From contig OZ245819.1 of assembly GCA_965228485.1 (NCBI GenBank), positions 600,001 to 632,000 of the forward strand: a stretch of 32,000 nucleotides of DNA, given 5' to 3'. A program made the translations under genes and the position numbers. Every line of letters starts with the position of its first letter. Within the stretch, counting starts at the first letter, position 1. Of the stretch, positions 2,621-30,328 are shown one piece after another. Under the pieces are notes generated by a model. That model did not search any database. It had not been told where the DNA came from and saw only the letters and a program-made list of their open reading frames with translations. The DNA is from Candidatus Saccharimonadota bacterium. GTDB lineage: Bacteria > Patescibacteriota > Gracilibacteria > UBA4473.

Positions 2621-2676
2621 TTTTATTTTAATTATCAATTATGTTAAAATGATCTGAAAACTAAAATTCAAAATAA

Positions 2677-6235: not shown

Positions 6236-6237
6236 CC

Positions 6238-7317
6238 TTATCGACTACGAAGCTCTGTCACATAATGTGCTAAAATCTCACAGAAATCGGCTACAGCTTG
6301 ATCAGTTAAAAACTTATGCAGACTGATACGAATTGGATACTGCCAATCAGAATCTGATTCAATATATTTTATGTATTCGGTTGGAACCATTATATCGGAG
6401 GTACAAGCCGATCCGATAGAAACACATATCGACTCTTCTCGAGACAAAACGGTCATTAGCTCTCCGCCTCTGACACCTTTAAATGCCACGTTAATCATTC
6501 CTTCAACCGTTGGAACGCTCTCATCATGGAACTTAGAATCTCCAATATTTTGTTTAATAAAATTTTTTATCACTTCTTCCCACTTAGAAAACTGAGAAGT
6601 ATACACGGCTTTATCTTCTTCCCATATTTCAAAAGCCATGGCAGCCCCAGATACCAAATAGGGACTTTTGGTATGACTATCCTTTGAAATAACTGCAAAA
6701 TTTTCTGGGTTTTTTAGATACAGCACACCAATATGCTTTGGTCCATAGAATTTTTGAGGAGTAAAGACCGCTGCATCTACCAAAGAGAGGTTTGGCTTAA
6801 TTCCTTTAGCGAAAGATTGTGAACAGTCAGACAATATTAGGACGTTTGGAAAACGGTCTCTGAGTTTTTTAACATCATAGATTCTTCCCGTTTCAGAGTT
6901 TGCCTCCATAAGACAAACCAGTTTTGCGTTATGAGAAACCTCAGTAAAAGATACAGGGTCAAATTGATTCTCAAGCAAAACTTCATCTGCAATAGAGGAA
7001 TGCTCAGCTTTTGATGCCCAAGTAAATTCCCCCCATTTACTGTCTGGATTCTCCAATAAAAAACGTCGATTGCATTCCTGGATAAAACGCCGATTAGCAT
7101 CTGTTCCTGAATAAACGATACTTAGCTGCTCCCAATTACAGCCAAGGACTTTAGCCATTTTTTTTAGTCCTTGATCAATAATCTGTTGAGACTCAAATCC
7201 CGCTACATGTTTTGAATTATTATTCCCAGGAATATCTAAGGTTTCCAGTATAGCTTGTTTAACTTTTGGATCTAAAGGTGTAGAGGCGGCTGAGTCAAAG
7301 TAGGTTTGCAAGTTCAT
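6238..7317 (-). CDS. Class V aminotransferase / cysteine desulfurase-like (NifS/IscS family)
   Basis: YFDSAASTPLDPKV N-terminus, NSETG, DCSQ, the PLP-lysine context PQKFYGPKHIGVLY, and an active-site loop SIGSACTS (compare SSGSACTS of IscS/NifS). Confidence 0.75.
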   Translation of the reverse strand: MNLQTYFDSAASTPLDPKVKQAILETLDIPGNNNSKHVAGFESQQIIDQGLKKMAKVLGCNWEQLSIVYSGTDANRRFIQECNRRFLLENPDSKWGEFTWASKAEHSSIADEVLLENQFDPVSFTEVSHNAKLVCLMEANSETGRIYDVKKLRDRFPNVLILSDCSQSFAKGIKPNLSLVDAAVFTPQKFYGPKHIGVLYLKNPENFAVISKDSHTKSPYLVSGAAMAFEIWEEDKAVYTSQFSKWEEVIKNFIKQNIGDSKFHDESVPTVEGMINVAFKGVRGGELMTVLSREESICVSIGSACTSDIMVPTEYIKYIESDSDWQYPIRISLHKFLTDQAVADFCEILAHYVTELRSR

Positions 7318-7480
7318 AGTAAATATCAGAGATAAGGTAGTAAAAAATTAAAAATTAAAAAACCCTATTTCCAAGAAAACTTCACTTTTCAGTAACAAAT
7401 TGATCAAGAATACATTAAATCTTCCTGATGCATTAAAGACTTTTCATTGGTAGAATTGAAAATCATACAAAAAAACACAA

Positions 7481-8026
7481 ATGAAAATACAACAGAAATC
7501 ATTTACACAACTATCTACAGAATATGAATGGAAAACAATAGTAGATAAAAAGGGATTTAAAGCCGAAGATTCTCAATTGGTTTTTGCGTTTGGCTATGGT
7601 GAATTTTTAGCATCGGAAAAAACATTTCTCAAATAAAAGATTTTTACCCCAAAGTTAGCTGTTCAACAGCGCGAGAAATTCTTAGTACAGAAGTTTATGA
7701 AAAAAGCATTCTTACGACGGACATAAATTCTTCAAAAACACAGATAGAAGTACTTCACAGTACTAAGAAATTATTAATATAACACTCAAAGAAAAAAACA
7801 GGAAGTTTTATGCGAGATAACCGATAACGGTTTTGGAATTCCCAAATCTCAACAAAATAAATTTTTCACAAAATTTTTTAGAGCTGAAAATGTTGTTAAA
7901 AGTTCTATTGATGGTTCTGGATTAGGCCCCTACATGGTCAAATCTATCATAGAAGCCTCTGGTAGACATGTTGGATTTAAATCTAAAGAAGGTGTTGGGA
8001 TCACCTTTTATTTCACACTTCCTTAA
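7481..8026 (+). pseudogene. Decayed FIST-domain sensor histidine kinase remnant
   Basis: Three short reading-frame fragments. (1) 7481-7636: MKIQQKSFTQLSTEYEWKTIVDKKGFKAEDSQLVFAFGYGEFLASEKTFLK*. (2) A shifted frame: IKDFYPKVSCSTAREILSTEVYEKSI..., continuing a FIST_N-like pattern. (3) 7784-8026: EVLCEITDNGFGIPKSQQNKFFTKFFRAEN...DGSGLGPYMVKSIIEASGRHVGFKSKEGVGITFYFTLP*, which is the G1/G2 end of an HATPase_c domain. No H-box or N-box lies between them. Confidence 0.6.
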
Positions 8027-8067
8027 CTCCTAGAAAAATAGGTGACACTACAGATGAAGACTCATGA

Positions 8068-8697
8068 TTATTTTGTCTTCCTGGCCAAAATGGTGTAATT
8101 CCTTTCTTCAAATTTTTTTGCCTCTAAAACTTCAAAACCAGCACTTTTTAGAAGTCTTTCCAGCTCATACTCTGGAACATTTCGATAAGTCCGCAAATGA
8201 CGTTCTTTCCCAAAGGGAATAATCCAATTTTTAGTAAATGTCCGACCTCTCCAGAAGTTTGACCAAAAATATTTTTCTGGCAGCACCCAAGTAGTTATAA
8301 AAACATGTCCCCCTGGTTTTAAGACTCTCAAAATTTCATTTAAACATCTTTTTTGGGAAGACTTGTCTAATAAATGATGAAAAGCTGCAATTGATATAAT
8401 CCAATCAAAATTATCTGACCCAAAAGGCAGTCCTACTCCAAAATTACCTTTAAAAAAAGCATCTTTAGGAAAAATCTTGCGAGCAATATCAAGTAATCCC
8501 TGAGATAAATCTAAACCAAAGTAATCCCCTTCTCGAATTAAAGTATTAGGTAAAAACTTACGTAGCCTACCATTGCCACACCCCAAATCCAAGACTCTCT
8601 CTCCCTTCTTTATAAGAGGGAAAAACATCTCAAACTCTGGCCAGCTTCTGTCCCGAGTATCAGAAAACTCTTTAGCGAAAGCATCATATTCTGACAT
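8068..8697 (-). CDS. Class I SAM-dependent methyltransferase (Trm9-like architecture)
   Basis: YDAFAKEFSDTRDRSWPEF followed by motif I VLDLGCGNGR and the post-I/II motifs (LKPGGHVFITTW). Confidence 0.75.
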   Translation of the reverse strand: MSEYDAFAKEFSDTRDRSWPEFEMFFPLIKKGERVLDLGCGNGRLRKFLPNTLIREGDYFGLDLSQGLLDIARKIFPKDAFFKGNFGVGLPFGSDNFDWIISIAAFHHLLDKSSQKRCLNEILRVLKPGGHVFITTWVLPEKYFWSNFWRGRTFTKNWIIPFGKERHLRTYRNVPEYELERLLKSAGFEVLEAKKFEERNYTILARKTK

Positions 8698-16502: not shown

Positions 16503-19355
16503 CTACTCCGTTTTTGGAGCCGTTTCTTCAGGCGAAACTGGAGCCAATGATTTATCTGAAGTTGCCGCTTGTGCAATAGTTGTTCCGACTGGTGCTTCTG
16601 CTGGTGCTTCAGGTTTATCGGTTAATAATTGGTCTGGGACCGTCGGATCTTTTTTAGCGGCATCTTCAATAGCGCTTAAATTTCCAATTCCCATTCGTGC
16701 TTCGATTTCAGCATCTACAAATTCTTTCTTACGACCGTATTTCATCCGAGAATATTTATGAATAATCTCCGCAATTTTCCAGTTCTTCAATGTTGGGTCG
16801 TACAACGTCTCCATAGAGAACGGCCGCGAAGTAGTATTATTAATATTTAGCTTGATGTAGGCTTTATAATTCGCAATTCCAAGAATGTCCTGCTGAGATA
16901 ATGATGGAGAATATTCTTTTTCTAAGTATTCAGCATCATCCGCCCCGACTTTAAAACTCATCATTGTTCCCACATTCCCAAATACGGCATCTCGAATTTT
17001 TGAATCTTTTTGTCCAACCGCTACTCCTCCAGCAGATTCTGATAACTGAGCGATGTACTGATGGGCCATGATAAGATTTAATCGGTACTTACGAGCCTCA
17101 GAAAGGATAGCCGCAAAAGTATCGGTCGCAAAATTCTGAAACTCATCCACATAGAGGTAAAAATCTTTCCGTTCATCCGCCGGTTGATCCACCCGACTCA
17201 TTGCCGCCTGATTGATTTTCGCCACCATAATCAACCCTAAAAGCTGGGCATTAATAGCTCCTATTCGCCCTTTCGAAAGATTGATTAAAAGTACTTTTTG
17301 ATTATCCATAGCTTCACGTACATTAAAGGCTGATTTTGTCTGTCCAATGATGTTACGCATAGTCGTGTTCGTCACGAATGGACCAAATTTAGAAGTGAAG
17401 TACGGAATCATTTCTTGTTTTTCTCGGTCTCCAGTATTCGCCATTTCATTTTCCCAGAAGGCTCTTACGACTGGATTTTTTACCTTAGAAACTTTGTAAC
17501 GCTGAAAATCATCATCAATAAACAACCGTGGAATATCAATAAGGGTCGCGCCTTCCTCTTCGTCTGACATAAGCGTCAAACAACCATTACGAAAGTAATG
17601 CTGAATACGTGGACCAAAGATTTCATTTCCGAAAAGCTTGATGAAGATTTCCATGGCATCAAGCGAAGCTCTATCTTGCTCTTCTTCGGTTTTGGCCTCA
17701 AGCACATTAAGTCCCATTGGACGATCTCGATCCCCTGGATCGAAAACAACAATATCTTTGGCTCGTTCTTTAGGTGTACAAGAAAGCACATCTTCTACAA
17801 GATCACCATGAGGATCAATCACACAGACACCCTCTCCCGCATGAACATCCTGCCAAGCCATATTCCACAAGAGCACCGATTTCCCCGAACCAGATTTCCC
17901 CACTACATAGGTATGTCTCGTACGATCGTTTCGGAGCATATGCACTAACCGTTCTTCTCCCCGATAAACATTTTTACCAAGGATAACCCCTTCTTGTGGC
18001 AGATTAATAGGGGGTGGTAGTACTTTGTAATCCATCCAACGAATGGTTGGAATACGGTTATAACGAGCATCTGGAAAATGGAAAATTGTTCCAAGCTCTT
18101 CAGAAGCCAGAATAGAATTAAATTCAAAAAGATTACTCAATCTTAATCGGTAATTGTGATGAATAATCGGACTATTAATTTTATTGATAAAAAAGATTCG
18201 TCGATTTTCAAAATAGTTTTTCCCCTTACCTTTAAAAGCATTGAAGGCAACAAAAATACCATTCAAAATTTCCTGACATTTGTCGGGACCATGAGGAGTA
18301 GAAACCATCACTCGGGTAATCGTGTCAAACCCAGATTGAAGCGCTTTCTCCCCAATAGCTTTAGCTACCTCTTCTTCAGACTGCAGCATTCGAACGTAAC
18401 TATCTCCCCCACTGGCGCCTGGAGCATTTGTTCCTCCGTCAACCGCTGGATCATATCCAGTCATCATAACTTTTGGTAGCCACCAAATAGCACTTAAAAT
18501 TGGTCCAATAATCGGAACATCTAAATGACCTTTTTTCTTTTTCCCTTTGAATAGTCGAGTTCCTTCTTTCTGAGCTTTTTTTCTCCATCTTTTTGATTTT
18601 GGATGAATCACCATTTGAACCACAGCTTTTTCAGACTTATCCAGCTTAGAAAAAGAATTGGCCACCTCATTAAGGGCATCATCTTCTAGATTTTTATAAG
18701 TCTGAATTGGATACCAAAAATCCTCTTTTGTATAAAGATAAAACCCATTCACATAAGCATTATTTGTTTTAAGATCGATACGCTTATCTTTTGGGATTTC
18801 TTCAATTTCAGCTGATTCATAAAAAGAAGTTACCAGCTTCTGAATAATTGATTTGTAATAAGGATCACAAACAATTACAAAACTCAATTCTTGTTCCTCA
18901 AATTGAAGCTCAAATGAAATCTGAGGTTTCCCCCAAATCCAACGCTTAATAAAAACATTGTAGAGATTCAAGTCACGTGTCTCATGAAGTGCTCGATAAA
19001 ACTGTTCCGCTTTTCCTATCTGTTCTTTGAAATCTTTATCGGTCCGTTTTTCATTATCTAATTTCGAATCATTCTTTGGAAGAATTACTCTCATATGAAT
19101 TAATCGCCCCTCTTCTTTTCGATCGTGGATATACCGTATAGTGAAACGGATTAACACGAAAAGTGTATAGATATCTAAAGCTAAAAACACTCCATGAGTA
19201 ATAATCTGCCACCACTCCATTTGAGCATTAATTGTCGACCAAGGATCAGCTTCCGTAAACCATGCCGTAATCAACAAAAAAGCCAAGCGCATTCGATATG
19301 CACTTCGGGCAATTATGCCAATTCTGAGCAAGATTATTTTTAGGAGTGTTCCCAT
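16503..19355 (-). CDS. Membrane-anchored VirD4/TraD/TraG-like (type IV coupling protein-like) P-loop ATPase
   Basis: Two N-terminal hydrophobic helices and a ~400-aa domain I do not recognise. Walker A VVGKSGSGKSVLL lies at nt 17877-17900. Walker B is FYLYVDEFQNF, followed by ARKYRLNLIMAHQYIAQL, as in the TraD/VirD4/FtsK-HerA clade. The C-terminal tail is disordered, acidic and Pro/Ala-rich. Confidence 0.75.
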   Translation of the reverse strand: MGTLLKIILLRIGIIARSAYRMRLAFLLITAWFTEADPWSTINAQMEWWQIITHGVFLALDIYTLFVLIRFTIRYIHDRKEEGRLIHMRVILPKNDSKLDNEKRTDKDFKEQIGKAEQFYRALHETRDLNLYNVFIKRWIWGKPQISFELQFEEQELSFVIVCDPYYKSIIQKLVTSFYESAEIEEIPKDKRIDLKTNNAYVNGFYLYTKEDFWYPIQTYKNLEDDALNEVANSFSKLDKSEKAVVQMVIHPKSKRWRKKAQKEGTRLFKGKKKKGHLDVPIIGPILSAIWWLPKVMMTGYDPAVDGGTNAPGASGGDSYVRMLQSEEEVAKAIGEKALQSGFDTITRVMVSTPHGPDKCQEILNGIFVAFNAFKGKGKNYFENRRIFFINKINSPIIHHNYRLRLSNLFEFNSILASEELGTIFHFPDARYNRIPTIRWMDYKVLPPPINLPQEGVILGKNVYRGEERLVHMLRNDRTRHTYVVGKSGSGKSVLLWNMAWQDVHAGEGVCVIDPHGDLVEDVLSCTPKERAKDIVVFDPGDRDRPMGLNVLEAKTEEEQDRASLDAMEIFIKLFGNEIFGPRIQHYFRNGCLTLMSDEEEGATLIDIPRLFIDDDFQRYKVSKVKNPVVRAFWENEMANTGDREKQEMIPYFTSKFGPFVTNTTMRNIIGQTKSAFNVREAMDNQKVLLINLSKGRIGAINAQLLGLIMVAKINQAAMSRVDQPADERKDFYLYVDEFQNFATDTFAAILSEARKYRLNLIMAHQYIAQLSESAGGVAVGQKDSKIRDAVFGNVGTMMSFKVGADDAEYLEKEYSPSLSQQDILGIANYKAYIKLNINNTTSRPFSMETLYDPTLKNWKIAEIIHKYSRMKYGRKKEFVDAEIEARMGIGNLSAIEDAAKKDPTVPDQLLTDKPEAPAEAPVGTTIAQAATSDKSLAPVSPEETAPKTE

Positions 19356-19372
19356 GTGAATAAAATCCCTTA

Positions 19373-19401
19373 ATTATAATGCATTTTAAGGCTTTTTTCA
19401 A
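19373..19401 (-). promoter_or_regulatory. Sigma-70-type promoter for the ATPase gene (TTGAAA-N17-TATAAT)
   Basis: The minus strand reads TTGAAAaaagccttaaaatgcatTATAAT. The -10 element ends 17 nt upstream of the ATG at 19355. Confidence 0.45.
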
Positions 19402-19423
19402 TGGAAAGCTCTAGACAAACAAC

Positions 19424-19458
19424 AAAAAAACCAGATTTGATACTAAACCTGGTTTTTT
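19424..19458 (-). terminator. Rho-independent terminator after the 1437-aa gene
   Basis: Minus-strand RNA has the stem CCAGGUUU, loop agtatc, stem AAAUCUGG (one G-U pair), then U7. It lies 19 nt downstream of the stop at 19477. Confidence 0.6.
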
Positions 19459-19476
19459 GTAAAAATTTGAGACTTT

Positions 19477-22400
19477 TTATCCTTGAACCTCTTCTCTCCA
19501 ATCAGTTCCAAGGAATTGCTCTAGAATTGGAGGCGTTGCCTCAAGTAGTCGAAGGTCAAAATTAACGACTAAACTTGGCTCTGGAACAGGGAATCCGTTG
19601 GCATCCACTGGCGCTACCGAAGTATCTCCAATGTATTTTCGGAAACTCAACAAGTGCGCTAGATTACCGATAAGATTTCCTGAAACATTAAGTTGTTTAT
19701 CAGAAATGTCATCATTCTTGGCCTTAATTTGTCCTCGTTCCACTAGGAATGTACCATGAATTTCTTCAACATTTTTATCAATCAATATATCTCCATCTTG
19801 TACTACAAAAGCTACAAAGTGAGGACTCGGAATATTATTGAAGTCGCTATTGATGATAAGATCACCATTTTCAACAATGAATGTTACACTTCGAGTAAGG
19901 CCTGCAATATTCACAGAATCTAAATCCAGATCTCCATTGTAGAAGTAAACTCCTGATTCATACTCATGTGTTCGGAAGTTATTTCCAAAAGCACTTTGTG
20001 TTTGAGTATTTTGATTTAGATTTTCATAGAAATCGTTATTATCAACGTTCTGAAAGTTCCCAAGCTCATCAAATTCGTCCATCGTTAGTACGTCTGGCAC
20101 AAACAAGTTGTTATCACTCATGATTTCACTAATTGTTTGTGGTTTCCCTGTTACTTTTTCGGCCTGAGAAGACTGAATTCCTACATTCCCCGCTTTGGCT
20201 CGAATAAATGGTCTGATAATTTGAACCTGAGCGCTTGAACCGAGTGAAGAGATACTTCGAACGTACTGCTCCAGAGTCGGAGGTGTACAAGCATTATCTC
20301 CAATACCAATTCGTTTAAATCCTGTGGCACTTGTAGCTCGATTTCTGTACGTGTACTCAATCACCGCAAAGGCTACATTTTTAAGTTGAGAAGTATCTTT
20401 TTCAGACGCTAGAGCTGTATTCATATCATAATGAACTTTGTATTGTGCAAACCCTGCATTGTTCAGATCGCCAATTTCAGTTGAAGTAAGCGTTCTTTCA
20501 AAGTAATCTTTATCTTCGGCACAGTTCCCTGGTTTACCACACCATCTCCAAGTGGCATTATCATCTCCATCAATAATTCCGTGTCGATTCCAGATATTCC
20601 CAGATTCCTCTGGGATCATCATGTCGTAGACTTTGATTTTCCCCGTTAGAATTTCGTAAGCCGTTTTATCAAAGTTAAGATTATCAACCGTAATTTCGTA
20701 GGTAACAATGTCTGATTTAGATACGGTGATTTTTTTCACTAGAGAGCCACTATCATTATTTTTTACCTGTTTATTAATCGTTGCTCCAACATTGAAACAC
20801 TCTGGACAATCTCCTACTGGCTCACAAGGAGTTGGCGGATGTGGAGGCTGGATAGTGCCACATTGTGCGGCAATTTCTGCTGAGGTAGGAGAAGCAAATG
20901 GATCAATAACTCCTCCAATATTAGCTCCACAGAGCTTAAGGTCTTGATTTTCTGCCCAATCCAATACACAAGATCGTTCTCGAGTATTAGCCGTATTTCG
21001 TGGTTCTGTATTTCCTACTACACAATTCCGGTATGACTGCCATAGAGGATCACTCGGATCTTCTACTGGCCGACGGTTTGTACATTGTTGTGCTCCAGTA
21101 TTTGGATGGATAGTACACGTTCCTACTCGTGGAATAGTGTCTCCACTACCCCCTCCTGTATCAATCGTTACATTACTTGGATCTTCATCATTTACTTGTG
21201 GATCTCCATTTACTGGATCTCCTGTTACTCGAGCGATATTTGTGAAAGCTGAAGTAACATTTTCTAACTCACAAACGTAAGTGAATGACTCATTTGAATC
21301 GAATATCCCATCCGCATTGCCAGTGGCTTGAATCAATGGCAATGTTTGAGCGGCTGTTCGCTCACAGTCTGGAGCGAGTAGATCCGTCACAATTACATTT
21401 GTAAGGCTTTCGGTTCCATCATTAGTAACCTTAATGGTAAAGGTGGCTGTTCCGCCTCCTACTGGCATTTCTTGGGTATCATGCCCATCACTATCAGGAG
21501 TTCCTGGAGTTGAGTCATCTTTATCAATATCAATAGAAGGTCCTGTTGGATTTCCTGGGATAACCACTTCTGTTGGATCGGTATCATTTACGATTTGATC
21601 ATCTACCACAGATTCCCCTGTAACCGTTGCTGTATTCGTATAAGAGTCTGTTACATTTGTATCTTCACAGGTATAAGTAAACGATTCTCCTGGATCGAAA
21701 ATATTATCTCGATTCCCAACCGCTTGGATCAATGGTAAAGCTTGAGCGATAGTTCGAGCACAGTTTGGTTCTCTCCCATCGTCAATTCGTACATTCTTAA
21801 GTCCTTCACTTCCCGTATTTGTTACCTGAATCGTAAAGATTGCTGTTCCTCCACGAGCGACTCGTTGAGTATCATCTCCATCTGTATCTGGATCTCCTGG
21901 AGTCGAGTCATCTTTGTCGATTTCAATAGCTGGAGCATCCTCTACCCTTACCTCTGTTGGATCTTCATCGGTAACTGTTGTACCAGAGCCAACTCCAACC
22001 CCACTTACTTGAGAATCATTATCCCCATCAACAAATGTTGTCGTTTGTACATTCTCTTTCGTACAAGTGTAAGAGAATGAATTTCCTGGAGAAAGAACAT
22101 TGTCACCATTTTCAACGGCTTGAATTAGTGGAAGTGTCTGAGCGGCTGTTCGAGCACAATCAGTAGCTTCCGCATCAGTAATAACAATATCTCGAAGTCC
22201 TTCTGTTCCGGTATTGGTTACTTTAATCGTAAAGGTCGCTGTTCCTCCTGGAACGACTACCTGTGTATCATCTCCATCATTATCGGCTGTTCCCGGAGTT
22301 GAATCATCTTTATCAATTTTGATATCTGGTCCTGCTGGTGGTCCTACAACCACTTCTGTAGGGTCAGTATCCGTTACTTTTGTTGTATCATCATACGTAG

Positions 22401-23790
22401 ATATTCCTTCTGTATAAGCTACATTTGTATAACTAGCTGTTACGTTTGTATCCTGACAGGCGTAAGTAAACGACTCTCCTGGATCGAAAATATTGTCTCG
22501 ATTTCCAATCGCTTGAATCAATGGTAGTGCTTGGGCAACTGTTCGAGCACAACTTGGTGCTAAAGTATCGTTAACCAACACATCTTTTAATCCAGTTTCT
22601 CCATCGTTAGTTACTTTGATAGTAAAGTTTGCCGTTCCTCCAACTTCAACTCGCTGAGTATCATGGCCATCATTGTCAGGCGTTCCTGGAGTTGAGTCAT
22701 CTTTATCAATTTTGATTGAAGGATTTGGTTTTCGAATATTAACGGTATCACCACAAAGGTTACGGCTATCTGGATTCTTAATATTACATCTTAATGTCGC
22801 TCCATCATTTGCCGACATTGGAATAGTAATTAGTTTATTTCCGTTAGCAGAGACTGTTTCATCAATATTAACACCTGTTCCAGATCCTCCACATACAAGT
22901 TTACTTCCTGATTCTAAATCTTGAGTTCTCCAAGTAAATCGTACTTGTTCTCCAGCAATAACTTCATCTTTATTAAATTCTGCTTCTTGACAGCTTGGCT
23001 GCGCATCAACAATTTTAAAGTACATTACTACCACTCGAGAATTCCCAGCTGAACCAGCAACATCTCCTAAATTAACCCTAGCTGTTTTCGCGCTAGGTCG
23101 ACTTGAAGAAACAGTTTGATGTGACCAGTTGGTATTCCCATTTGTCTGACAAGTTCCATAAAGACTGTGTCCTGGTGGATAATAATCTGGAAAATTTCTC
23201 TTACCAACCGTCGTTCTTTGAAACTCTAAATCAAAAGTCCCTCCCCCCTGAAGACGAAGATCTACAATATCATTAATTACCTGAGGATTAGCATTACTTG
23301 CTGCAATACTCGACACCACCTTTCTAGGATCGCTCCAGTCTACAGTTACGGTTGTATTTCGCGCATGGTTGATTCCACCACAACCCTGATTAGCATTATT
23401 ATGCACATACGTAAACACACGAATAACATCTCCTTTTCGAAGATTGGTTAATGTATGTTTATAAACCCTCGGGGCATCAGTATTTTTTGCCGCAGTAACA
23501 AAATCCCTCTCATCATCCAAATTCCCAAGCCCATTAGAAGCAATATATGCCGCTCGTTGACTATCTGAAATTGTCCAAGGCATATGTCCTCTAACCTGAG
23601 GAAGCCACGGCTGATTATGAATTAGATTAAATTGAACAGAATTCCCAATACCACTATTTACATTAATCCCATTAACTCGTTTATTAGATCGGTTATTAGG
23701 AAAAAAATCACCTGACCCAGCATACGTTGCGGTGGGCAAGAAAATAGATAGCACTAGGCTAGCGGCAACCGTTTTAAAACATCTCATCAT
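19477..23790 (-). CDS. Giant secreted surface protein with four DUF11-type (conserved repeat domain) repeats
   Basis: Signal peptide MMRCFKTVAASLVLSIFLPTATYA|GS. Four ~131-aa repeats start xIxIDKDDSTPGxxDxDGxDTQ and contain GGTAxFTIKVTNxG (the DUF11 hallmark) plus a Cys pair. A Cys-rich region follows, then a C-terminal ~180-aa domain. No LPXTG motif or TM anchor was seen. Confidence 0.8.
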   Translation of the reverse strand: MMRCFKTVAASLVLSIFLPTATYAGSGDFFPNNRSNKRVNGINVNSGIGNSVQFNLIHNQPWLPQVRGHMPWTISDSQRAAYIASNGLGNLDDERDFVTAAKNTDAPRVYKHTLTNLRKGDVIRVFTYVHNNANQGCGGINHARNTTVTVDWSDPRKVVSSIAASNANPQVINDIVDLRLQGGGTFDLEFQRTTVGKRNFPDYYPPGHSLYGTCQTNGNTNWSHQTVSSSRPSAKTARVNLGDVAGSAGNSRVVVMYFKIVDAQPSCQEAEFNKDEVIAGEQVRFTWRTQDLESGSKLVCGGSGTGVNIDETVSANGNKLITIPMSANDGATLRCNIKNPDSRNLCGDTVNIRKPNPSIKIDKDDSTPGTPDNDGHDTQRVEVGGTANFTIKVTNDGETGLKDVLVNDTLAPSCARTVAQALPLIQAIGNRDNIFDPGESFTYACQDTNVTASYTNVAYTEGISTYDDTTKVTDTDPTEVVVGPPAGPDIKIDKDDSTPGTADNDGDDTQVVVPGGTATFTIKVTNTGTEGLRDIVITDAEATDCARTAAQTLPLIQAVENGDNVLSPGNSFSYTCTKENVQTTTFVDGDNDSQVSGVGVGSGTTVTDEDPTEVRVEDAPAIEIDKDDSTPGDPDTDGDDTQRVARGGTAIFTIQVTNTGSEGLKNVRIDDGREPNCARTIAQALPLIQAVGNRDNIFDPGESFTYTCEDTNVTDSYTNTATVTGESVVDDQIVNDTDPTEVVIPGNPTGPSIDIDKDDSTPGTPDSDGHDTQEMPVGGGTATFTIKVTNDGTESLTNVIVTDLLAPDCERTAAQTLPLIQATGNADGIFDSNESFTYVCELENVTSAFTNIARVTGDPVNGDPQVNDEDPSNVTIDTGGGSGDTIPRVGTCTIHPNTGAQQCTNRRPVEDPSDPLWQSYRNCVVGNTEPRNTANTRERSCVLDWAENQDLKLCGANIGGVIDPFASPTSAEIAAQCGTIQPPHPPTPCEPVGDCPECFNVGATINKQVKNNDSGSLVKKITVSKSDIVTYEITVDNLNFDKTAYEILTGKIKVYDMMIPEESGNIWNRHGIIDGDDNATWRWCGKPGNCAEDKDYFERTLTSTEIGDLNNAGFAQYKVHYDMNTALASEKDTSQLKNVAFAVIEYTYRNRATSATGFKRIGIGDNACTPPTLEQYVRSISSLGSSAQVQIIRPFIRAKAGNVGIQSSQAEKVTGKPQTISEIMSDNNLFVPDVLTMDEFDELGNFQNVDNNDFYENLNQNTQTQSAFGNNFRTHEYESGVYFYNGDLDLDSVNIAGLTRSVTFIVENGDLIINSDFNNIPSPHFVAFVVQDGDILIDKNVEEIHGTFLVERGQIKAKNDDISDKQLNVSGNLIGNLAHLLSFRKYIGDTSVAPVDANGFPVPEPSLVVNFDLRLLEATPPILEQFLGTDWREEVQG
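21142..22719 (-). repeat. Four tandem ~393-nt coding repeats (DUF11 modules) with an A-B-A-B relationship
   Basis: Repeats start at aa 358, 489, 621 and 752. Repeats 1 and 3 share ARTxAQALPLIQAxGNRDNIFDPGESFTYxCxDTNVTxSYTN. Repeats 2 and 4 share RTAAQTLPLIQA. Confidence 0.85.
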
Positions 23791-23817
23791 AGGTGGATTA
23801 ATTTAGATTTTTGAGAT

Positions 23818-23967
23818 TTAAAGTATTTCTTGAATAGATTCATGTGGAGCAGGCTGAATATTCAGCTCTGGAGGTAAAATCACAGGTCTTGTAAAGTAAT
23901 AAATTAGACCCGCGGCAATTAATACCAATACAATGAATCCGATAAGAGCGTTCTTTTTATTTTTCAT
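23818..23967 (-). CDS. 49-aa single-pass membrane peptide upstream of the giant gene
   Basis: MKNKKNALIGFIVLVLIAAGLIYYFTRPVILPPELNIQPAPHESIQEIL*. It is too short for the ORF track. It has a basic N-terminus and one TM helix, lies 27 nt upstream of the giant gene and just downstream of a strong promoter-like site. Confidence 0.45.
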   Translation of the reverse strand: MKNKKNALIGFIVLVLIAAGLIYYFTRPVILPPELNIQPAPHESIQEIL

Positions 23968-23988
23968 GGAATTTTATTTATTCTGACT

Positions 23989-24017
23989 ATTTTACCACAG
24001 ATTCTATCACTTCGCAA
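23989..24017 (-). promoter_or_regulatory. Extended -10 promoter (TTGCGA-N17-TAAAAT with TGTGG upstream)
   Basis: The minus strand reads TTGCGAagtgatagaatcTGTGGTAAAAT. The -10 element ends 21 nt upstream of the small-ORF ATG. Confidence 0.45.
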
Positions 24018-24092
24018 CCAAAGTCTCAATCCGTATTTTGTCCAATATCTTTATATTTGTATATTACATTTTTTGTTTTTGTCAAATATTAT

Positions 24093-24124
24093 AAAAAAAA
24101 CCTTCAATTTCTTGAAGGTTTTTT
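24093..24124 (-). terminator. Rho-independent (bidirectional-looking) terminator after the Hint-domain gene
   Basis: Perfect 9-bp stem AACCTTCAA / TTGAAGGTT with loop TTTC. It is flanked by an A8 run on one side and a T-run on the other. It lies ~25 nt downstream of the TGA-TAA stop. Confidence 0.65.
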
Positions 24125-24148
24125 ACTTTTCTACTTATCTCAGTATTA

Positions 24149-27100
24149 TCAGGCGCCTGTTCCAGCTCCGTCACCACTATCCCCACTATCACCGCTATCT
24201 CCACTACCATCTCCACTAGCGGCTCCTTTATTATGGACGAGAACTCCATCAGCATAGAATGTATGATAATTCTCAATAGAGCTTAGATTGTACACCTGTA
24301 CTTCTCCAGACACTACTTCTAGACTTTCTACTTCTACCAGACTCCCATCTGATAGATGTAGTTTATCTCCAGTTTCTAGTAGTTCTGCTTCTACTTCATG
24401 TTCTGATAGAGCTTTTTCTGGTGAAATAGCCGTCCATCCAGTGTATCCACTCGCTTTAGTTGCATAGATTGGATGATTCTCTGTTACATTTAGAACTCCT
24501 CCGTTAACTACACAGTAACCTTCGGCCTTTGGAGCGTGAGTAGCTAAGACTTTAGCTTCTTTTTGTTCTCCAGATTCTTCATCATAAGCTACTACTGTAT
24601 CCCCTACCACTACATCTTCAATATTCTTTTGAGTTCCATCCGCCATTGATACTTTTGTTCCAGCTACAAAACAATTACCACTATCTCCACTATCACTATC
24701 TCCACTATCTCCACTATCACTATCTCCACTATCTCCACTATCACTATCTCCACTATCTCCACTATCACTATCTCCACTGTCACCATCTCTACCACCTCCA
24801 TCGCCACGAGGATCTGGCACGATTACAACATTTGGATCAACAACACGACCTCTTTGTTCTCCATATCGATTAATTACGGTCGTAGTACAGTATGGTCCTG
24901 GAACTCCACATGGAAGTCCTGTTCGGATAAAGTTATATCCTTCAGGAATATCTGGCATTGGTTCATCTAATTCAAGTAGTCCTAATTCATCATATTTACA
25001 TCGAATAAGTCCTTGAGTATCGATTGCTCTCATTCCTCCATAGGAATCTTGAACATAGAGCCATCGATTCATTTCTCGCTTGGCAGCGGTTTGTCCATAG
25101 TCACTTTTGATCATTTCATCAAAAGACTCAAAAGTTCTAACGGTCTTAGAACCATCCGGAGTAGTAATTGTTACCTCCCAACCACCTTTAACCGCTTGTC
25201 CTTCCACTACATTTGTTACTCGAGCTCGCTCTCCTCTCGTAGTATCAATATTGATATAAGAGAAACTTCCTCGATCCTCAATTTCTTTTTGAGCCGCTGA
25301 ACGTACAGCTTCAACTTTTTCTGGAGCTTGTCGCCCAAATTCTTGCCAGGCTTCATCCACCGTCCCAATATATCCTTGAGCCCTTCTTCTTGCCCAATCA
25401 ATTTTTAGCGTTCGAACTTCTGCATCTTTTCGAGATTGTTCTTCGGCTTCATTATAATTATCTTTGAAGTTTTGGAACCATTCTCGTGGTTCAACTGTTA
25501 CTTTTCCAGTTTCCCCATTCATCACTGGTTGGAATAGACGATCTAGTAACTGTCGACTTGGTCGTACCGTAGCTTTCCCTGAAGCCAGTAGTCCACTAAT
25601 TTTGTCTCGACTAATTTCCCCAGCTGAGGGTTCCCATACTTGTCCTACAACCCTAGTAGCTCCTCGAGTACGAGTAACTCCATCAAAAGTTGTTCCTGTA
25701 TATCGTTCTCGCCCAGTACTAATATGCTGACCACTCTCTCTTACTCGTGTAGTTTGAGAGTAGCTGTCTGTATAGTGATGAGTATAAGTATCAGTTCGTG
25801 TTTTGAAGATATGAAATCGTCCACCAAGACGATTATCAATCGTCATTAGCTCACCATCAACCTCGTAGTTTAGGTCTGGAAAACCGATAGTTGTATTGGT
25901 GTAATCTTCGATAGCACTTTTCCAGTGATCAAGATATTTTAGATCTTTACCATCATCTAAACCTCGTTCTTGAACAATCTTAACAATTTCATCGGCTTTC
26001 TCTTCGTAGGCCTGTCGCATTGATTGAACAATCTCTGGAAGTTTAGCATTGAGTTCGATGGTCGTTCCATCTTTAGAATAATGTCCTGCAAATTCTGCAA
26101 GTTTCAGAATTAGATCTGCATCAATTTTACCATCTTGAGGTGTATTGAACCCAAAGTAAGTGAGGGCACCTTCTAAATTCCCAATGGCATCAGGACTCAT
26201 CCCTACTAGACCTTTTATAACCTCCTTCAGTTCTGGCCTAGATTTTAGTAGATCAGAAAGTTCAGAATTTGGAGATTCATAGTTTTTCAGAGCTTCTGTT
26301 GATTTAGCACCAAAAACTCCATCTGGATTTGCACCAATGGCTTCTTGAATAGCTCGAACTGCTTTATTTAATGCCACCCGAGTTCCTCCGCCAATGACTC
26401 CATCAACTTCAATATCTGGATCAATAAGTTCGTTAATAGCTCGTTGCAAGGCTTCTGGATCATCTGTTTTTCCTGTTTTCACATAATCCAAAATAACTTT
26501 CCAAGAACTTGGTACTTCTTTTCCAGCTTCTAGCTCTTTGATAAGTTCTTCTGTTCGTTTATCTAGATCCGCATCTCTTTCTGGATTATCTTTATCTGGG
26601 GCTTCTGTTTCCACTGGTTTAGCAGGGGCTTCATAATTTTCACCATTTCCAACCTTAGCCTCTGGGCGAAGATGTCTGAGAGTATAAGCGTAAACTCTAA
26701 AGGCTTCTCGAGTTTTACCTCCGAAGTCTTTATCTACTGTTAAAGCTTTAATCCCTTTAAGTTCTGATCGTACTTCTGCTGGAACTTTGTACAGTTTTCC
26801 ATCCGGACCTGTAAAAGTATCTTTAACTTCCCCTGTCTCTTCTACAAAGAACATAGCATTAAAAGCTTCTTGGAAAGCTCCAATATTTTCAGCTAAGTCT
26901 TCACTTACAAAACCAAAAGGTTTTAAAGCTTCTGCTAATTTGGCTTTAGCAGCTTCTGTATTATCGTTAAGATCATTTATACGAGTTTCTCCAACTTGTA
27001 GATTGGCTTTATCACGTTGAAATAATAGGTCTCCTCCGGCTTTGGCACCTATTACTTGATCGAGTGTTAGATGACCAAATTTTCCTTCAATTAAATGAAT

Positions 27101-27484
27101 AATTAGATCATCAAGTCCAACCCCCTCTGAGTTAAGATGATTCTCAAAATCATTAAAACTACTATTAAAAAGGCCATCTGGATCTAAGACATCTTCCAAA
27201 GACTGCTTAATAGATAGTTTTCCTTCCTTGATTTCAAACATTTCATCAATTCGAGTAGATCGAATATGATCACGAGCACTATCTGGCATATCATTTCCAA
27301 ACCAATCTAATGGGTTTGAAGATTCATTATTGTCAACAAGCTCTTGTAATTTCGTAAGCTCTGCTGCCACATCGCCTTTGATAGAGTCTAGCTTGGTATG
27401 ATCAAGCTCTGGAGATTCTGGACCTCCCGCCAAGAAAATATACTTGGCCTTTAGTTCGTTGCCGGTTTTTTGGAGAAATTTCAT
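24149..27484 (-). CDS. Large acidic protein: shared N-terminal motif + peptidoglycan-binding-like module + (D/S/G) repeats + C-terminal Hint (bacterial intein-like) domain
   Basis: I place the start at MKFLQKTG (27484). The track's TTG at 27538 coincides with the -35 box, and the ATG at 27511 lies inside TATAATGG. A PG_binding_1-like segment is present: ALQRAINELIDPDIEVDGVIGGGTRVALNKAVRAIQEAIGANPDGVFGAKSTEALKNY. The Hint domain runs CFVAGTKV...TENHP...VLVHN. No signal peptide or TM helix was seen. Confidence 0.8.
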   Translation of the reverse strand: MKFLQKTGNELKAKYIFLAGGPESPELDHTKLDSIKGDVAAELTKLQELVDNNESSNPLDWFGNDMPDSARDHIRSTRIDEMFEIKEGKLSIKQSLEDVLDPDGLFNSSFNDFENHLNSEGVGLDDLIIHLIEGKFGHLTLDQVIGAKAGGDLLFQRDKANLQVGETRINDLNDNTEAAKAKLAEALKPFGFVSEDLAENIGAFQEAFNAMFFVEETGEVKDTFTGPDGKLYKVPAEVRSELKGIKALTVDKDFGGKTREAFRVYAYTLRHLRPEAKVGNGENYEAPAKPVETEAPDKDNPERDADLDKRTEELIKELEAGKEVPSSWKVILDYVKTGKTDDPEALQRAINELIDPDIEVDGVIGGGTRVALNKAVRAIQEAIGANPDGVFGAKSTEALKNYESPNSELSDLLKSRPELKEVIKGLVGMSPDAIGNLEGALTYFGFNTPQDGKIDADLILKLAEFAGHYSKDGTTIELNAKLPEIVQSMRQAYEEKADEIVKIVQERGLDDGKDLKYLDHWKSAIEDYTNTTIGFPDLNYEVDGELMTIDNRLGGRFHIFKTRTDTYTHHYTDSYSQTTRVRESGQHISTGRERYTGTTFDGVTRTRGATRVVGQVWEPSAGEISRDKISGLLASGKATVRPSRQLLDRLFQPVMNGETGKVTVEPREWFQNFKDNYNEAEEQSRKDAEVRTLKIDWARRRAQGYIGTVDEAWQEFGRQAPEKVEAVRSAAQKEIEDRGSFSYINIDTTRGERARVTNVVEGQAVKGGWEVTITTPDGSKTVRTFESFDEMIKSDYGQTAAKREMNRWLYVQDSYGGMRAIDTQGLIRCKYDELGLLELDEPMPDIPEGYNFIRTGLPCGVPGPYCTTTVINRYGEQRGRVVDPNVVIVPDPRGDGGGRDGDSGDSDSGDSGDSDSGDSGDSDSGDSGDSDSGDSGNCFVAGTKVSMADGTQKNIEDVVVGDTVVAYDEESGEQKEAKVLATHAPKAEGYCVVNGGVLNVTENHPIYATKASGYTGWTAISPEKALSEHEVEAELLETGDKLHLSDGSLVEVESLEVVSGEVQVYNLSSIENYHTFYADGVLVHNKGAASGDGSGDSGDSGDSGDGAGTGA
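24230..24673 (-). other. Hint / bacterial intein-like (BIL) domain, 148 aa
   Basis: Block A Cys1 (N|CFVAGTKVSMADG), block B TxxH (VTENHPIY), and terminal blocks YNLSSIENYHTFYADGVLVHN|K. There is no endonuclease insert. The +1 residue is Lys, and only 26 aa (a Gly/Ser/Asp tail) follow. Confidence 0.8.
24678..24787 (-). repeat. Perfect 24-nt tandem repeat (~4.5 copies) encoding (SGDSGDSD)n
   Basis: The plus strand reads ctccactatctccactatcactat, iterated without a mismatch. It is in-frame (8 codons per unit) and sits immediately upstream of the Hint Cys1. Confidence 0.9.
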
Positions 27485-27509
27485 AACATTAAAATTGAAA
27501 AATCCGACC

Positions 27510-27538
27510 ATTATACCACAGAAGGAAGAAAAAATCAA
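27510..27538 (-). promoter_or_regulatory. Extended -10 promoter of the Hint-domain gene (TTGATT-N17-TATAAT, TGTGG upstream)
   Basis: The minus strand reads TTGATTttttcttccttcTGTGGTATAATgg. The -10 element ends 25 nt upstream of the ATG at 27484. Confidence 0.5.
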
Positions 27539-27589
27539 ATGACAAATTTTATACCAAACACAAATCGGGAAAAGAGTCGTTTTTAGTCA

Positions 27590-27618
27590 TTGATTTTAGA
27601 TTAAAAATATGTTAAAAT
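27590..27618 (+). promoter_or_regulatory. Promoter of the 894-aa gene (TTGATT-N17-TAAAAT with TG at -14/-15)
   Basis: TTGATTttagattaaaaatatgtTAAAAT. The -10 element ends 25 nt upstream of the ATG at 27644. It is divergent from the previous promoter. Confidence 0.4.
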
Positions 27619-27643
27619 CCTAGGATTTTGTGTATTTATATTA

Positions 27644-30328
27644 ATGAAGTTTTGGCCTCTCAGTCACAACAACACCGATACTCGATGGATATTCAATGGT
27701 CCACCGGGAGCGGCTAGTGGACCCAGTGAAGGCATAAATCTTGAAAGACTCGAAAAAGAGGAAGCAATAAGAAATACTGAATCTGCCCTCGCAGAACTAC
27801 AGTCACGAGTAGAAACTGAAAACGGAGTGGAAAATCTGAGCTTAGATGAAAAGTTAGATATTCTTATCAGGATAGCAAGAAACGAAGCTATATATGATGA
27901 TGAGGAAGATAGCAGAGGGAGGCTAGCCCAGGCACGAGACTGGGTTGGTTCGGGACTGGAAGGGGTAAGCGATATATCCAAACATATTGGACTCGGGGGG
28001 TTTGAAGGATTTACACGTTCAGCTCAGGAAGCCACGGATCTCTCAACAGAAGCTTATGTGATTTCGATTCTAAAAGACGACGTCGTCTTAACTCGTTTTC
28101 TCTCTGAGCACCAAGAGGACTCTTTTAATCTCTTTACTGATCGAGTTGGAGATAATACCTATAGAACTAAGCTTTTTGGTAACAAAAATTTAGAAGCCAA
28201 TGCAAATTTCATGGAACTACTCTCTCCAGCTCCAGAAAATAGGTACCTAGAAATAAATGGAACTCATTTTGTTCGAACTCCTCACGGTTATGCTGCCTTT
28301 TTCCCAAAATCAGAAGTTGGAAAAAGAGCGAAGATTGAGTCTACTACCGTTTTTAAAACTTCATCATCTTTAACACCCGAGTCTCCAGAAGCAGAAAGTT
28401 TAGTAAATTTAAAAAAAAATAATCCTTTTTTTAGAAATATAGAAAGTGGGGCTTCAGTTGCTGTACTTGAACAGAGACGAAAATTCAATTTTCATACTTC
28501 TCAAACCTGGAAAAGACTAGCAGATGAACTCAAAGAGTCTTTTAAAGATAGTCCTACTTTCCCGGAAATGGCAGATACTATTCCCGAATCATTTAAAGTG
28601 TTTCTAGATGGAAATTTTTATGCTAAAAATTTAATAACAGCATCAACACAAACAACTGCAAACATCGAAGTAATAGGAATTACAGAAGCATTATTCGCAA
28701 CAGATGAACCACATATTTTTAGAGAAAAAATTACAAAAGCAATTGGACTTATTGCAAAGCACCTAAAAGAAAAAATTGACACACTGAGTAAAAAAGCAAA
28801 AGAAGAAAAAGACCCAGAAAAAAAGAAAGAGTTACAAGAACAGTCAGAGCAAATTTCTAACAATATCCCTAAAATATTTGGAACTATTCAAGAATTTATC
28901 ACCGATGAATTAGAGAACAATAGCGCAGCTATGAATGCTAATGAAAAACTATTTTCACGAGAATTCCCAGACCTACCACCAGAAAGTATTAATACATTTT
29001 TAACTGAGTTCGATACAGAAATAAAAGACCTTATGGAAAGTAAGGAACTAACAGAGGGTGAAGCCATGCATATTGCAGGAACATTATTTGGAAAAATACT
29101 GGGAAGTAATCTTGAAGGCACTTTAGAAGATTATCCACACATAAAAAACCTTGTGTTAGCACGTATCAACATCATAACGAAAGAATATGGAATTACGTCT
29201 CTCTCTAAATCTGCCGAAGTAATACAACAGGAATATGAAATAGCGAGAGACCTAAATGATCCTAGTAGTCCTGTTTCTCAAATTGCTGCAGAATTGGGAA
29301 TCGATCCAAAAACAGAACTTTCCCTAGAAGACCTTGAGGCTATTGCTGCAAAACTTAAAGAAAAATACGAAGCTGCTGAAAAAGCTAATAAAGAAGGCGT
29401 AGGGATCCCAACACCTGTAATTACAAAATATCTAAGAAGTTATGAAAACTTCTTAGGAAAAGTCGCCAGACTTCGAGCCGCTCGTAGAGAGGCTGCAGAA
29501 GCTAGAGACGAAGCGATTACAGTCGAAAGAAATACTGAAACTATAATCCCAGAATTGGAAAATATTTTTGATCCTGAAACACCAGAAGGAAAAAGATTTC
29601 ATGAAACTGTAGATATATCTGCGGAGTATATTCGTGAATATGCAGCCCAAAATAATGGAGCTATCCCACCAGACTTTACGAGTGAAAAATTTAATGAAAT
29701 AAGTACTCGATTAGAAGCCGGAGAAAGTCCTGAATCTATCCGACTATCTCTTGGACTCAAATCTCAGACATCTTCTCCAGAGTCTATTTCTGGACAATAT
29801 TTATCTCCACGGGCTATTCCTGCTGGGGCGACCAATGCAAGAACTCTAGAAAATGGAAATTTAGCCTTCGATGCGGGATCAACAACAATCGAAGTAGATA
29901 GCACCACCAATCCTCCAAGCATGTTCCCTCACGGAACAGAAGGTCTACAGCGTGAATGGATGACTATGCCAGCAACCGCTAAAAATGTACTGGCAATACA
30001 AATTGGTGGGGCGGTAATGAGTGCCAGTGTGGAAGATGGTCAAGAAGGACTAGGATTGATGTTTAGAAAAATGGGACGAGAAAAGTTCCAGATTTTACTC
30101 AGAAACCTTTCTTTCCCAAGAATGGGAAGACTGCTTCAGCCAAAAGAAGAAGAGGGGCTTCAGGCTATAAAAAACCAATTTGGAAGCATTGATATTATTT
30201 TCGAAAAACTGGGACTCCTTCGTGAAGACGGCCAAGCCGCTCCCGAAAATGTCGATGCCCGTACATCTGAACAATTTTTCAATATTCTTACCAGCGCAGC
30301 CGTTGGAAACTTCAAGTCTCTTGAGTAA
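27644..30328 (+). CDS. 894-aa acidic, helical protein of unknown function with the shared N-terminal motif
   Basis: Long uninterrupted ORF with normal coding texture. The N-terminus is MKFWPLSHNNTDTRWIFNGPPGAASGPS. It has Glu/Lys-rich coiled-coil-like stretches. No signal peptide, TM helix or recognisable domain was seen. Confidence 0.75.
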   Translation: MKFWPLSHNNTDTRWIFNGPPGAASGPSEGINLERLEKEEAIRNTESALAELQSRVETENGVENLSLDEKLDILIRIARNEAIYDDEEDSRGRLAQARDWVGSGLEGVSDISKHIGLGGFEGFTRSAQEATDLSTEAYVISILKDDVVLTRFLSEHQEDSFNLFTDRVGDNTYRTKLFGNKNLEANANFMELLSPAPENRYLEINGTHFVRTPHGYAAFFPKSEVGKRAKIESTTVFKTSSSLTPESPEAESLVNLKKNNPFFRNIESGASVAVLEQRRKFNFHTSQTWKRLADELKESFKDSPTFPEMADTIPESFKVFLDGNFYAKNLITASTQTTANIEVIGITEALFATDEPHIFREKITKAIGLIAKHLKEKIDTLSKKAKEEKDPEKKKELQEQSEQISNNIPKIFGTIQEFITDELENNSAAMNANEKLFSREFPDLPPESINTFLTEFDTEIKDLMESKELTEGEAMHIAGTLFGKILGSNLEGTLEDYPHIKNLVLARINIITKEYGITSLSKSAEVIQQEYEIARDLNDPSSPVSQIAAELGIDPKTELSLEDLEAIAAKLKEKYEAAEKANKEGVGIPTPVITKYLRSYENFLGKVARLRAARREAAEARDEAITVERNTETIIPELENIFDPETPEGKRFHETVDISAEYIREYAAQNNGAIPPDFTSEKFNEISTRLEAGESPESIRLSLGLKSQTSSPESISGQYLSPRAIPAGATNARTLENGNLAFDAGSTTIEVDSTTNPPSMFPHGTEGLQREWMTMPATAKNVLAIQIGGAVMSASVEDGQEGLGLMFRKMGREKFQILLRNLSFPRMGRLLQPKEEEGLQAIKNQFGSIDIIFEKLGLLREDGQAAPENVDARTSEQFFNILTSAAVGNFKSLE

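Follow-up and report, generated by a model that had tools for sequence, protein, structure and literature searches.

A Candidatus Saccharimonadota bacterium encodes, on the minus strand of contig OZ245819.1, a 1111-amino-acid (aa) protein that ends in a 148-aa Hint domain; the stretch analysed, hereafter the window, is 32,000 nucleotides (nt) long and spans positions 600,001 to 632,000 of the contig. Judging from its sequence, the domain is probably an active type-A bacterial intein-like (BIL) domain that removes itself from the ~937-aa peptidoglycan-binding part ahead of it, through a thioester at its first residue (Cys1) and cyclization of its terminal Asn. Profile and fold comparisons bring the domain closest to solved BIL domains, and its catalytic residues recur at two orthologous loci.

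The gene comprises the following parts; residue numbers given below (C956, N955, H1102, N1103, and K1104) follow the open reading frame (ORF) that begins at an upstream TTG.

24149..27484, minus strand: gene for the 1111-aa Hint-terminated protein (ATG at 27484, stop TGA at 24149-24151; ORF list)
27510..27518, minus strand: extended -10 promoter element TGGTATAAT, 25 nt upstream of ATG 27484 (read from the sequence, a consensus match only)
24815..27484, minus strand: N-terminal ~890-aa orphan, the fast-evolving part or putative cargo (no homologues, weak orthologue patches)
26294..26464, minus strand: PG_binding_1 domain, aa 359-415 of the TTG-ORF (Pfam PF01471, 25.3 bits, cut-off 23)
24815..25078, minus strand: pre-Hint Cys-containing module, weakly similar between orthologues (phmmer, BLASTP, orthologue alignment A2)
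24674..24814, minus strand: 47-aa Asp/Ser/Gly linker before the Hint domain, DPRGDGGGRDG(DSGDSDSG)x4 DSGN
24230..24673, minus strand: 148-aa HINT / type-A BIL-like domain (Cys1, block B T-E-N-H, block F VYNL...YHTFYA, block G H-N)
24227..24229, minus strand: +1 Lys, conserved in all three orthologues
24152..24229, minus strand: 26-aa Gly/Ser/Asp tail (C-extein) KGAASGDGSGDSGDSGDSGDGAGTGA, beginning with the +1 Lys
24146..24151, minus strand: tandem stops TGA-TAA (TGA 24149-24151, in-frame TAA 24146-24148)
24095..24124, no strand assigned: 13-bp hairpin flanked by an A-run and a T-run, resembling a bidirectional intrinsic terminator

The ORF extends to 27538 if the upstream TTG is used. Because the extended -10 box falls inside this extension, the true start lies at ATG 27484, in line with the length of ~1111 aa proposed in an earlier note made from the letters of the window alone. 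Cys1, the TxxH motif, the terminal His-Asn, the 47-aa linker, the tail, the TGA-TAA stops, and the terminator, all described in that note, were each recovered at their positions. The Cys1 codon occupies nt 24671-24673 and the terminal Asn codon 24230-24232; block B reads T-E-N-H-P in full, and the domain closes with L-V-H-N. No homing-endonuclease insert is present in the 148-aa domain, which fits the size of a mini domain, and the window contains no further Hint domain.

Two features of the surrounding DNA are recorded here as observations. In the linker DNA at 24678-24785, a 24-nt unit recurs in tandem 4.5 times with 97% matches (TRF), and imperfect direct repeats of Asp/Ser/Gly-coding DNA (65-79% over 34 nt) flank the Hint-coding segment (24157-24217 versus 24661-24790); their spacing of 477 nt keeps them in frame, and recombination between them could delete the Hint domain cleanly. 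TGA stops are rare in the window, closing 2 of 19 ORFs (5132-5134 and 24149-24151), and both are backed by an in-frame TAA, two codons later at one and directly at the other. The lineage may avoid TGA as a stop, or the codon may be leaky. Genetic code 25, in which TGA is read as Gly, is unlikely because the long ORFs hold no in-frame TGA; here it would add just one Gly ahead of the TAA.

Identity of the terminal Hint domain

Profile searches place the domain firmly among Hint families. The top Pfam match is PT-HINT (PF07591; 37.7-43 bits, cut-off 27.7, E=7e-11), the Pfam Hint model scores 35.5 bits against a cut-off of 29.7, and the NCBI model TIGR01443 (intein_Cterm) scores 17.9 bits against 15.6, while the Pfam Intein_splicing model stays below its cut-off for this region. 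With the single sequence as query, the best PDB match is 2LWY, a BIL domain of Clostridium thermocellum (E=4e-11), and the second is BIL2 of the Tetrahymena BUBL protein.

A profile built from 36 related Hint domains (alignment A1) and run against PDB sharpened this ranking: Tetrahymena BIL2 was matched at E=1e-25, 2LWY at 2e-22, the Hint domain of a Streptomyces umbrella toxin (8W20, identified through PMC11062931) at 8e-19, classical inteins at 3.5e-11 to 1e-5, and Hedgehog at 5e-5. Alignment to intein, BIL, and Hog-Hint profiles had been suggested in the earlier note as the way to assign the subtype, and its outcome is type-A BIL. Every sequence of alignment A1 has Cys1, the block-B His-Pro, and the terminal Asn; for the block-B Thr and the penultimate His, conservation is at least 90%.

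The predicted structure agrees. An AlphaFold2 model built from alignment A1 has a mean predicted local distance difference test (pLDDT) score of 93.4, which together with the Pfam scores above cut-off substantiates a complete 148-aa Hint fold, as first proposed. Low confidence is confined to the first and last few flank residues: The first 10-residue block, which includes seven residues of the N-terminal flank, averages a pLDDT of 70 versus 94-98 for the domain core, and the modelled stretch of the tail falls below 50 at its end. Foldseek against the PDB returned BIL2 first (TM score ~0.8), then 2LWY, mini-inteins, and Hedgehog.

Reviews of the BIL families (PMC4031507, PMC7765530, PMC5874633), from which we drew the family definitions, describe type-A BILs as domains with HINT motifs, a C-terminal His-Asn, no +1 nucleophile, and no endonuclease, located in variable regions of non-conserved bacterial proteins. 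The window domain has the HINT fold (AlphaFold2 model, Foldseek), an N-terminal Cys with a block-B TxxH (Cys956, T-E-N-H), and the C-terminal His-Asn (...LVHN; PMC4031507, PMC7765530). Its +1 residue, in the window protein and in both orthologues, is Lys rather than Cys, Ser, or Thr. It lies between low-complexity flanks in a protein whose N-terminal part cannot be aligned, and its A1 profile E-values are better for type-A BILs than for other HINT families. Every type-A feature that sequence can test is present, and on these features the domain is assigned to the type-A BIL branch of the HINT superfamily.

Neighbouring HINT families fit less well. The +1 Lys argues against a canonical (class 1) intein; the flanking sequence has no extein homologues and so offers no conserved host insertion site, and the C-extein is a 26-aa low-complexity tail. 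The view of the earlier note that the domain is BIL-like and no canonical splicing intein is borne out by this +1 Lys, by the missing endonuclease insert, and by the preference of both the A1 profile and Foldseek for BIL2 and 2LWY. Type-B BILs show no likeness to block G of inteins and are ruled out by the terminal His-Asn. A Hedgehog or Hog-Hint assignment is countered by the profile values (5e-5, compared with 1e-25 for BIL2) and by the C-terminal flank, in which a 26-aa disordered tail leaves no sterol- or adduct-recognition region. A pretoxin HINT of polymorphic toxins would account for the PF07591 match, yet no C-terminal toxin domain follows and the ORF stops 26 aa past the Hint domain. 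Nor is there a candidate immunity gene: Downstream lie the terminator and a 49-aa transmembrane ORF that has no sequence counterpart in the orthologous loci.

Orthologues and the wider family

An exhaustive phmmer search of 1.8 billion representative proteins gave 8295 matches. The top 150 all align through the Hint region, and two matches, P0015 and P0016 (full-length form, P0157), extend into the pre-Hint Cys module. The match to P0015 reaches back to query residue 802, and BLASTP finds 29% identity over 58 aa between P0015 and the window protein in this module. At the two corresponding loci (L029 and L030), the Hint domain is ~70% identical to that of the window, and the neighbouring VirD4-like ATPase is 72% identical.

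The three proteins end alike, in a Hint domain, a Lys, and a Gly/Ser/Ala/acidic tail of 26, 26, or 28 aa that is similar in composition and low in identity. Both orthologue genes close with TAA stops after tails of 26-28 aa, so the inspection of orthologues for downstream cassettes proposed earlier returned none, and the claim that no cargo follows the Hint domain holds for the window, where nothing lies past the 26-aa tail, as well as for L029 and L030. Two independent positional orthologues terminate identically, so a downstream domain concealed by a frameshift or an assembly artefact can be set aside.

The rest of the protein has diverged. Only two weak collinear patches align between orthologues across the N-terminal ~800 aa; a word-index search for homologues of the N-terminal 890 aa returned none, and the PDB contains no relatives of this part. 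The word-index search with the whole protein, in which low-complexity words filled the list of candidates, returned none either, and an exact look-up of its sequence matched no public contig. The Asp/Ser/Gly linker repeat of the window is absent from the orthologues (alignment A2). A cell-wall-binding module is nevertheless found in all three proteins: PG_binding_1 in the window protein and in P0157 (32 bits), and SH3_3 in P0015. The Hint domain is, by sequence comparison, the conserved part, under selection, of an otherwise fast-evolving protein.

Scans of other collections delimit this group. A metagenome scan with the orthologue alignment recovered 80 Hint loci, of which none qualified as another orthologue (identity was 44% at most) or showed the VirD4/DUF11 synteny. 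At 26 adenylate kinase loci of Peribacteria/Gracilibacteria-class genomes of the Candidate Phyla Radiation (CPR), no Hint domain was found; three of the 26 carry a VirD4-like gene, 42% identical and differently arranged. In a cultured-phage collection, classical helicase inteins were the sole matches (~32% identity).

For a view of the wider family, we surveyed 156 related proteins; complete Hint domains occur in 154 of them and number 310 in all. Of these domains, 302 have Cys1 and 279 close with His-Asn; Lys takes the +1 position in 193 (62%) and Arg in 19. Two-thirds of the proteins (104/154) carry two to seven complete Hint domains, some of which abut directly with junctions of the form 'VHNK(GG)CF'. 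The last Hint domain lies within 40 aa of the protein end in 61/154 and within 5 aa in 31/154, and two such cargo-less ends were confirmed as real stops in the DNA. Among these 61 terminal domains, Cys1 is retained in 60, His-Asn in 50, and a +1 Lys in 35. The metagenomic loci behave similarly: in 19 of 74 closed ORFs, no more than 40 aa follow the last Hint domain that the profile detects, and ~19 more have a C-terminal extension of ~140-150 aa that starts with a Hint-like 'CFxAGT', judged by eye to be a possible divergent second Hint. The cargo-less terminal Hint domain is a recurrent layout and no peculiarity of the window gene; the rarity implied in the earlier note does not stand.

Other aspects of the survey describe the family more broadly. 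Additional domains in the related proteins are of extracellular types (Big_9, Cadherin_4, SH3_3), and the NCBI-named members belong to Candidatus Moranbacteria (CPR), Nanoarchaeota (DPANN), and Mucilaginibacter. The two flanks of one Hint domain resemble each other in composition (cosine 0.58 versus 0.47 for random pairs, about 7 standard deviations). In a set that takes in P0007, P0025, and P0030, some proteins consist almost wholly of tandem Hint domains, up to seven of them complete, joined in places by 'K', 'KGG', or 'KC', and others of a signal peptide with two Hint domains that Gly- or Asp-rich linkers keep apart. P0011 (WP_377022980.1, Mucilaginibacter angelicae, 4119 aa) bears the RefSeq name 'Hint domain-containing homing endonuclease', which looks like an over-annotation, as its matches are BIL-like mini Hints. 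Marine metagenome loci L056-L064, L073, and others form a recurrent group that has a Hint-plus-cargo layout, with one Hint domain followed by a conserved C-terminal module of ~115 aa (VHNKGGGGGKIVCTMMNERYGFGSFRNKIW...). A separate C-terminal bacterial Hint-like subgroup has been noted before (PMC2362128), and we found no paper linking Hint domains with the CPR.

Predicted reactions, gene context, and alternative readings

Since C-terminal cargo is absent, the Hint domain must act on the N-terminal part, by release, maturation, or ligation. Residues for the first (Cys1, Thr-x-x-His) and third (His-Asn) intein steps are present and conserved, so type-A BIL chemistry would be expected; such domains form an N-terminal thioester, undergo C-terminal cleavage by Asn cyclization, and may use the freed amine for ligation, cleavage products being predominant (PMC4031507). 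From fold, family, catalytic residues, conservation, and gene context, we infer the following course. After folding, Cys956 would attack the Asn955-Cys956 bond in an N-to-S acyl shift aided by the block-B Thr-x-x-His, leaving the ~937-aa N-terminal part held by the thioester alone. Asn1103, aided by His1102, would then cyclize, and the Lys-led 26-aa tail would be cut off. The thioester could finally be resolved by water (simple release), by the amine of the tail Lys, or by an outside amine; the tail-Lys option would amount to BIL-type 'splicing', in which the two Asp/Ser/Gly segments are rejoined and the Hint domain is discarded. Overall, a peptidoglycan-binding protein would shed its Hint domain in a single turnover and at no energy cost. 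The flanks are low-complexity, flexible linkers, and their modelled residues have reduced pLDDT. Where the C-extein is one Lys alone, His-Asn and a basic residue at +1 are still kept, which suggests that the C-terminal reaction, perhaps the Lys itself, matters.

Several points weigh against this reading. Block F carries Asn where class-1 inteins have Asp, although 2LWY likewise has Asn. What benefit C-terminal cleavage would bring is unclear when the cargo is 1-28 residues long. A disposable appendage could be lost cheaply through a stop codon in the linker, and its retention argues for an extra role that self-removal does not name. Neither a Sec signal nor a transmembrane segment was found in the Hint protein of the window or in its two orthologues. 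If release is all that occurs, the locus adds modestly to the known range of self-cleaving modules.

The adenylate kinase neighbours place the organism in a Peribacteria/Gracilibacteria-class CPR lineage, and the window shares with L029 and L030 the gene order of a divergent ~900-aa orphan, the Hint protein, a small ORF, a DUF11/CLIPPER giant, a VirD4-like ATPase, and a phosphoribosyltransferase.

16503-30328 in the window, 76-18490 in L029, and also in L030, both strands: conserved cluster (gene order)
16503..19355, minus strand: 950-aa membrane-anchored VirD4/TraD-like coupling ATPase (Pfam, NCBIfam; 72% identical to the 992-aa protein of L029)
19477..23790, minus strand: 1437-aa signal-peptide protein with several DUF11/CLIPPER repeats (Pfam; 39% identical to the 1715-aa protein of L029)
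23818..23967, minus strand: 49-aa small ORF with a single transmembrane segment (small ORFs at the same position in the orthologues are lipoprotein-like and not homologous)
27644..30328, plus strand: 894-aa orphan, divergently transcribed (its counterpart in L029, a 932-aa protein likewise placed divergently, is 29% identical over 781 aa)
27305-27484 (minus) and 27644-27826 (plus) in the window, 76-2874 (minus) and 5947-8490 (plus) in L029: sites of a weak N-terminal pattern (sequence comparison)

The VirD4-like ATPase carries an N-terminal membrane anchor (DUF8128 in L029). CLIPPER is Pfam's present name for DUF11, and intramolecular isopeptide bonds are predicted for it (PMC12617251); the 1437-aa protein lacks an LPXTG-type end. 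The 894-aa orphan has no Pfam match and neither a Sec signal nor a transmembrane segment. A weak N-terminal pattern, MK[FS]..N..[GK][RK][FWY][IV].F ... LxxLQxxVE, is common to the Hint protein, its orthologues, and the divergent ~900-aa orphan, and could be a shared non-Sec targeting leader.

An outside amine as the acceptor would turn the domain into a built-in ligase, a 'self-sortase' that anchors the peptidoglycan-binding part covalently without ATP or a sortase; candidate acceptors would be the Lys or diaminopimelate of peptidoglycan stem peptides or their cross-bridge, a lipid head group, or a host-cell protein. BIL2, the closest solved relative by profile, forms isopeptide bonds with Lys epsilon-amines and hands its N-extein to several substrates without ATP (PMC8616854, section 2.4), and the N-terminal part of all three orthologues contains the cell-wall-binding module. 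Self-release and Hedgehog-like transfer, the two functions put forward in the earlier note, stay the leading candidates, and the Lys isopeptide bonds of BIL2 give the transfer idea a precedent. In the window, the Asp/Ser/Gly stalk stands immediately before the reactive bond. Staphylococcal surface proteins have SD-repeat stalks ahead of the LPXTG sorting signal. The locus also encodes surface and transfer-type proteins (DUF11/CLIPPER, VirD4-like). A functional analogy is offered by a thioester-domain adhesin of Bacillus subtilis, which efficient conjugation requires (PMC8092201). The stalk repeat is absent from the orthologues, however, the acceptor amine is purely hypothetical, and no recognisable export signal was found in the protein. 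Pure N-terminal transfer, moreover, needs neither His-Asn nor the +1 Lys, yet both are strongly conserved, and Hedgehog domains, which only transfer, score far lower on the A1 profile. On this balance we regard anchoring as unlikely. Were ligation true, it would provide a new, sortase-independent way of fixing proteins to cell walls or hosts, and could also yield a compact new tool for protein ligation at Lys.

A broader version extends ligation to the family, with cargo-less terminal BILs and their conserved +1 Lys forming a class of built-in, ATP-independent ligases that couple surface or host-interaction proteins to amines. The named members of this candidate group are from CPR, DPANN, and other bacteria, and the acceptors could be their own or host peptidoglycan, a host surface protein, or another subunit. 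We consider this generalization quite doubtful; if correct, it would amount to sortase-free anchoring or adhesion, tied here to a VirD4-like/DUF11 host-interaction locus.

The abundance of tandem domains raises the alternative of a selfish or neutral intein-like passenger, a mini-element that duplicates within linkers of non-essential surface proteins and splices itself out at no benefit to its host. Two to seven Hint domains, some back to back, occur in two-thirds of relatives, and P0025 and P0030 contain little beyond a signal peptide, Hint domains, and Gly- or Asp-rich linkers; the imperfect in-frame direct repeats of linker DNA around the Hint-coding segment and the compositional likeness of the two flanks point the same way. 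Such a passenger should decay or be lost, because a non-splicing mutant or a premature stop near the C-terminus costs little when only a 26-aa tail follows. Instead, three diverged loci whose N-terminal parts cannot be aligned retain the domain at 70% identity and with its catalytic residues complete, and it has no homing endonuclease. A passenger is, in our judgement, very unlikely.

We find it equally hard to credit an export-linked module, in which the acidic disordered tail, with or without the Hint domain, would be recognised by the adjacent VirD4-like ATPase and the Hint domain would then remove itself together with the signal. Type IV secretion substrates usually bear unstructured C-terminal signals. 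The VirD4-like gene is a conserved neighbour, the tail length is kept at 26/26/28 aa, and the Hint protein and the 894-aa orphan lack Sec signals and transmembrane segments even though the Hint protein has a peptidoglycan-binding domain. Against this, the window contains no VirB4, VirB6, or other secretion-channel genes, the tail in the wider family is often one Lys, and secretion of the Hint protein is itself hypothetical.

Comparison with known systems

BIL domains have been known since 2003, and their role in bacteria is still largely obscure; the window locus is a clean, conserved test case for cargo-less terminal BILs. It places predicted type-A BIL chemistry in a Hedgehog-like position. 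The locus is conserved, the bacterium is of the episymbiotic type, and the domain is clearly constrained in a protein that otherwise evolves freely. The architecture departs from the described BIL and pretoxin contexts and recalls Hedgehog, in that the Hint domain stands last and can act only on the preceding part.

The C. thermocellum BIL (2LWY) shares with the window domain the HINT fold, Cys1, TxxH, His-Asn, a non-nucleophilic +1 residue, the lack of an endonuclease, and a variable, non-conserved host protein. The window domain differs in being the last folded unit, with a 26-aa low-complexity C-flank, a conserved +1 Lys, a CPR host, and a VirD4/DUF11 locus. Tetrahymena thermophila BUBL BIL2 (6Y75/6TMM) is the best match in both profile and fold and represents a HINT branch capable of transferring an N-extein to a Lys epsilon-amine (PMC8616854). 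Unlike the window domain, it is eukaryotic and sits between two ubiquitin-like domains, with a ubiquitin-like cargo; here a ~937-aa peptidoglycan-binding orphan is the putative cargo, and a short disordered tail makes up the C-flank.

Pretoxin HINT domains (PF07591; 8W20, PMC11062931) provide the top Pfam match and a profile match (E=8e-19 for 8W20). They precede a C-terminal toxin and an immunity gene, whereas the window has no toxin and its downstream small ORF is not conserved in sequence. Hedgehog and Hog proteins resemble the window protein in layout, in that a C-terminal Hint domain works through a Cys thioester on the cargo ahead of it. In sequence and fold they match far less well (5e-5), and the window domain lacks a sterol-recognition region and has the intein-type His-Asn. 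With sortase/LPXTG anchoring the likeness is a functional analogy, namely a surface-protein stalk whose C-terminal end carries a Cys thioester that an amine can resolve. The two share no homology, and in the window protein the substrate would form its own thioester, turning over once, with a hypothetical acceptor.

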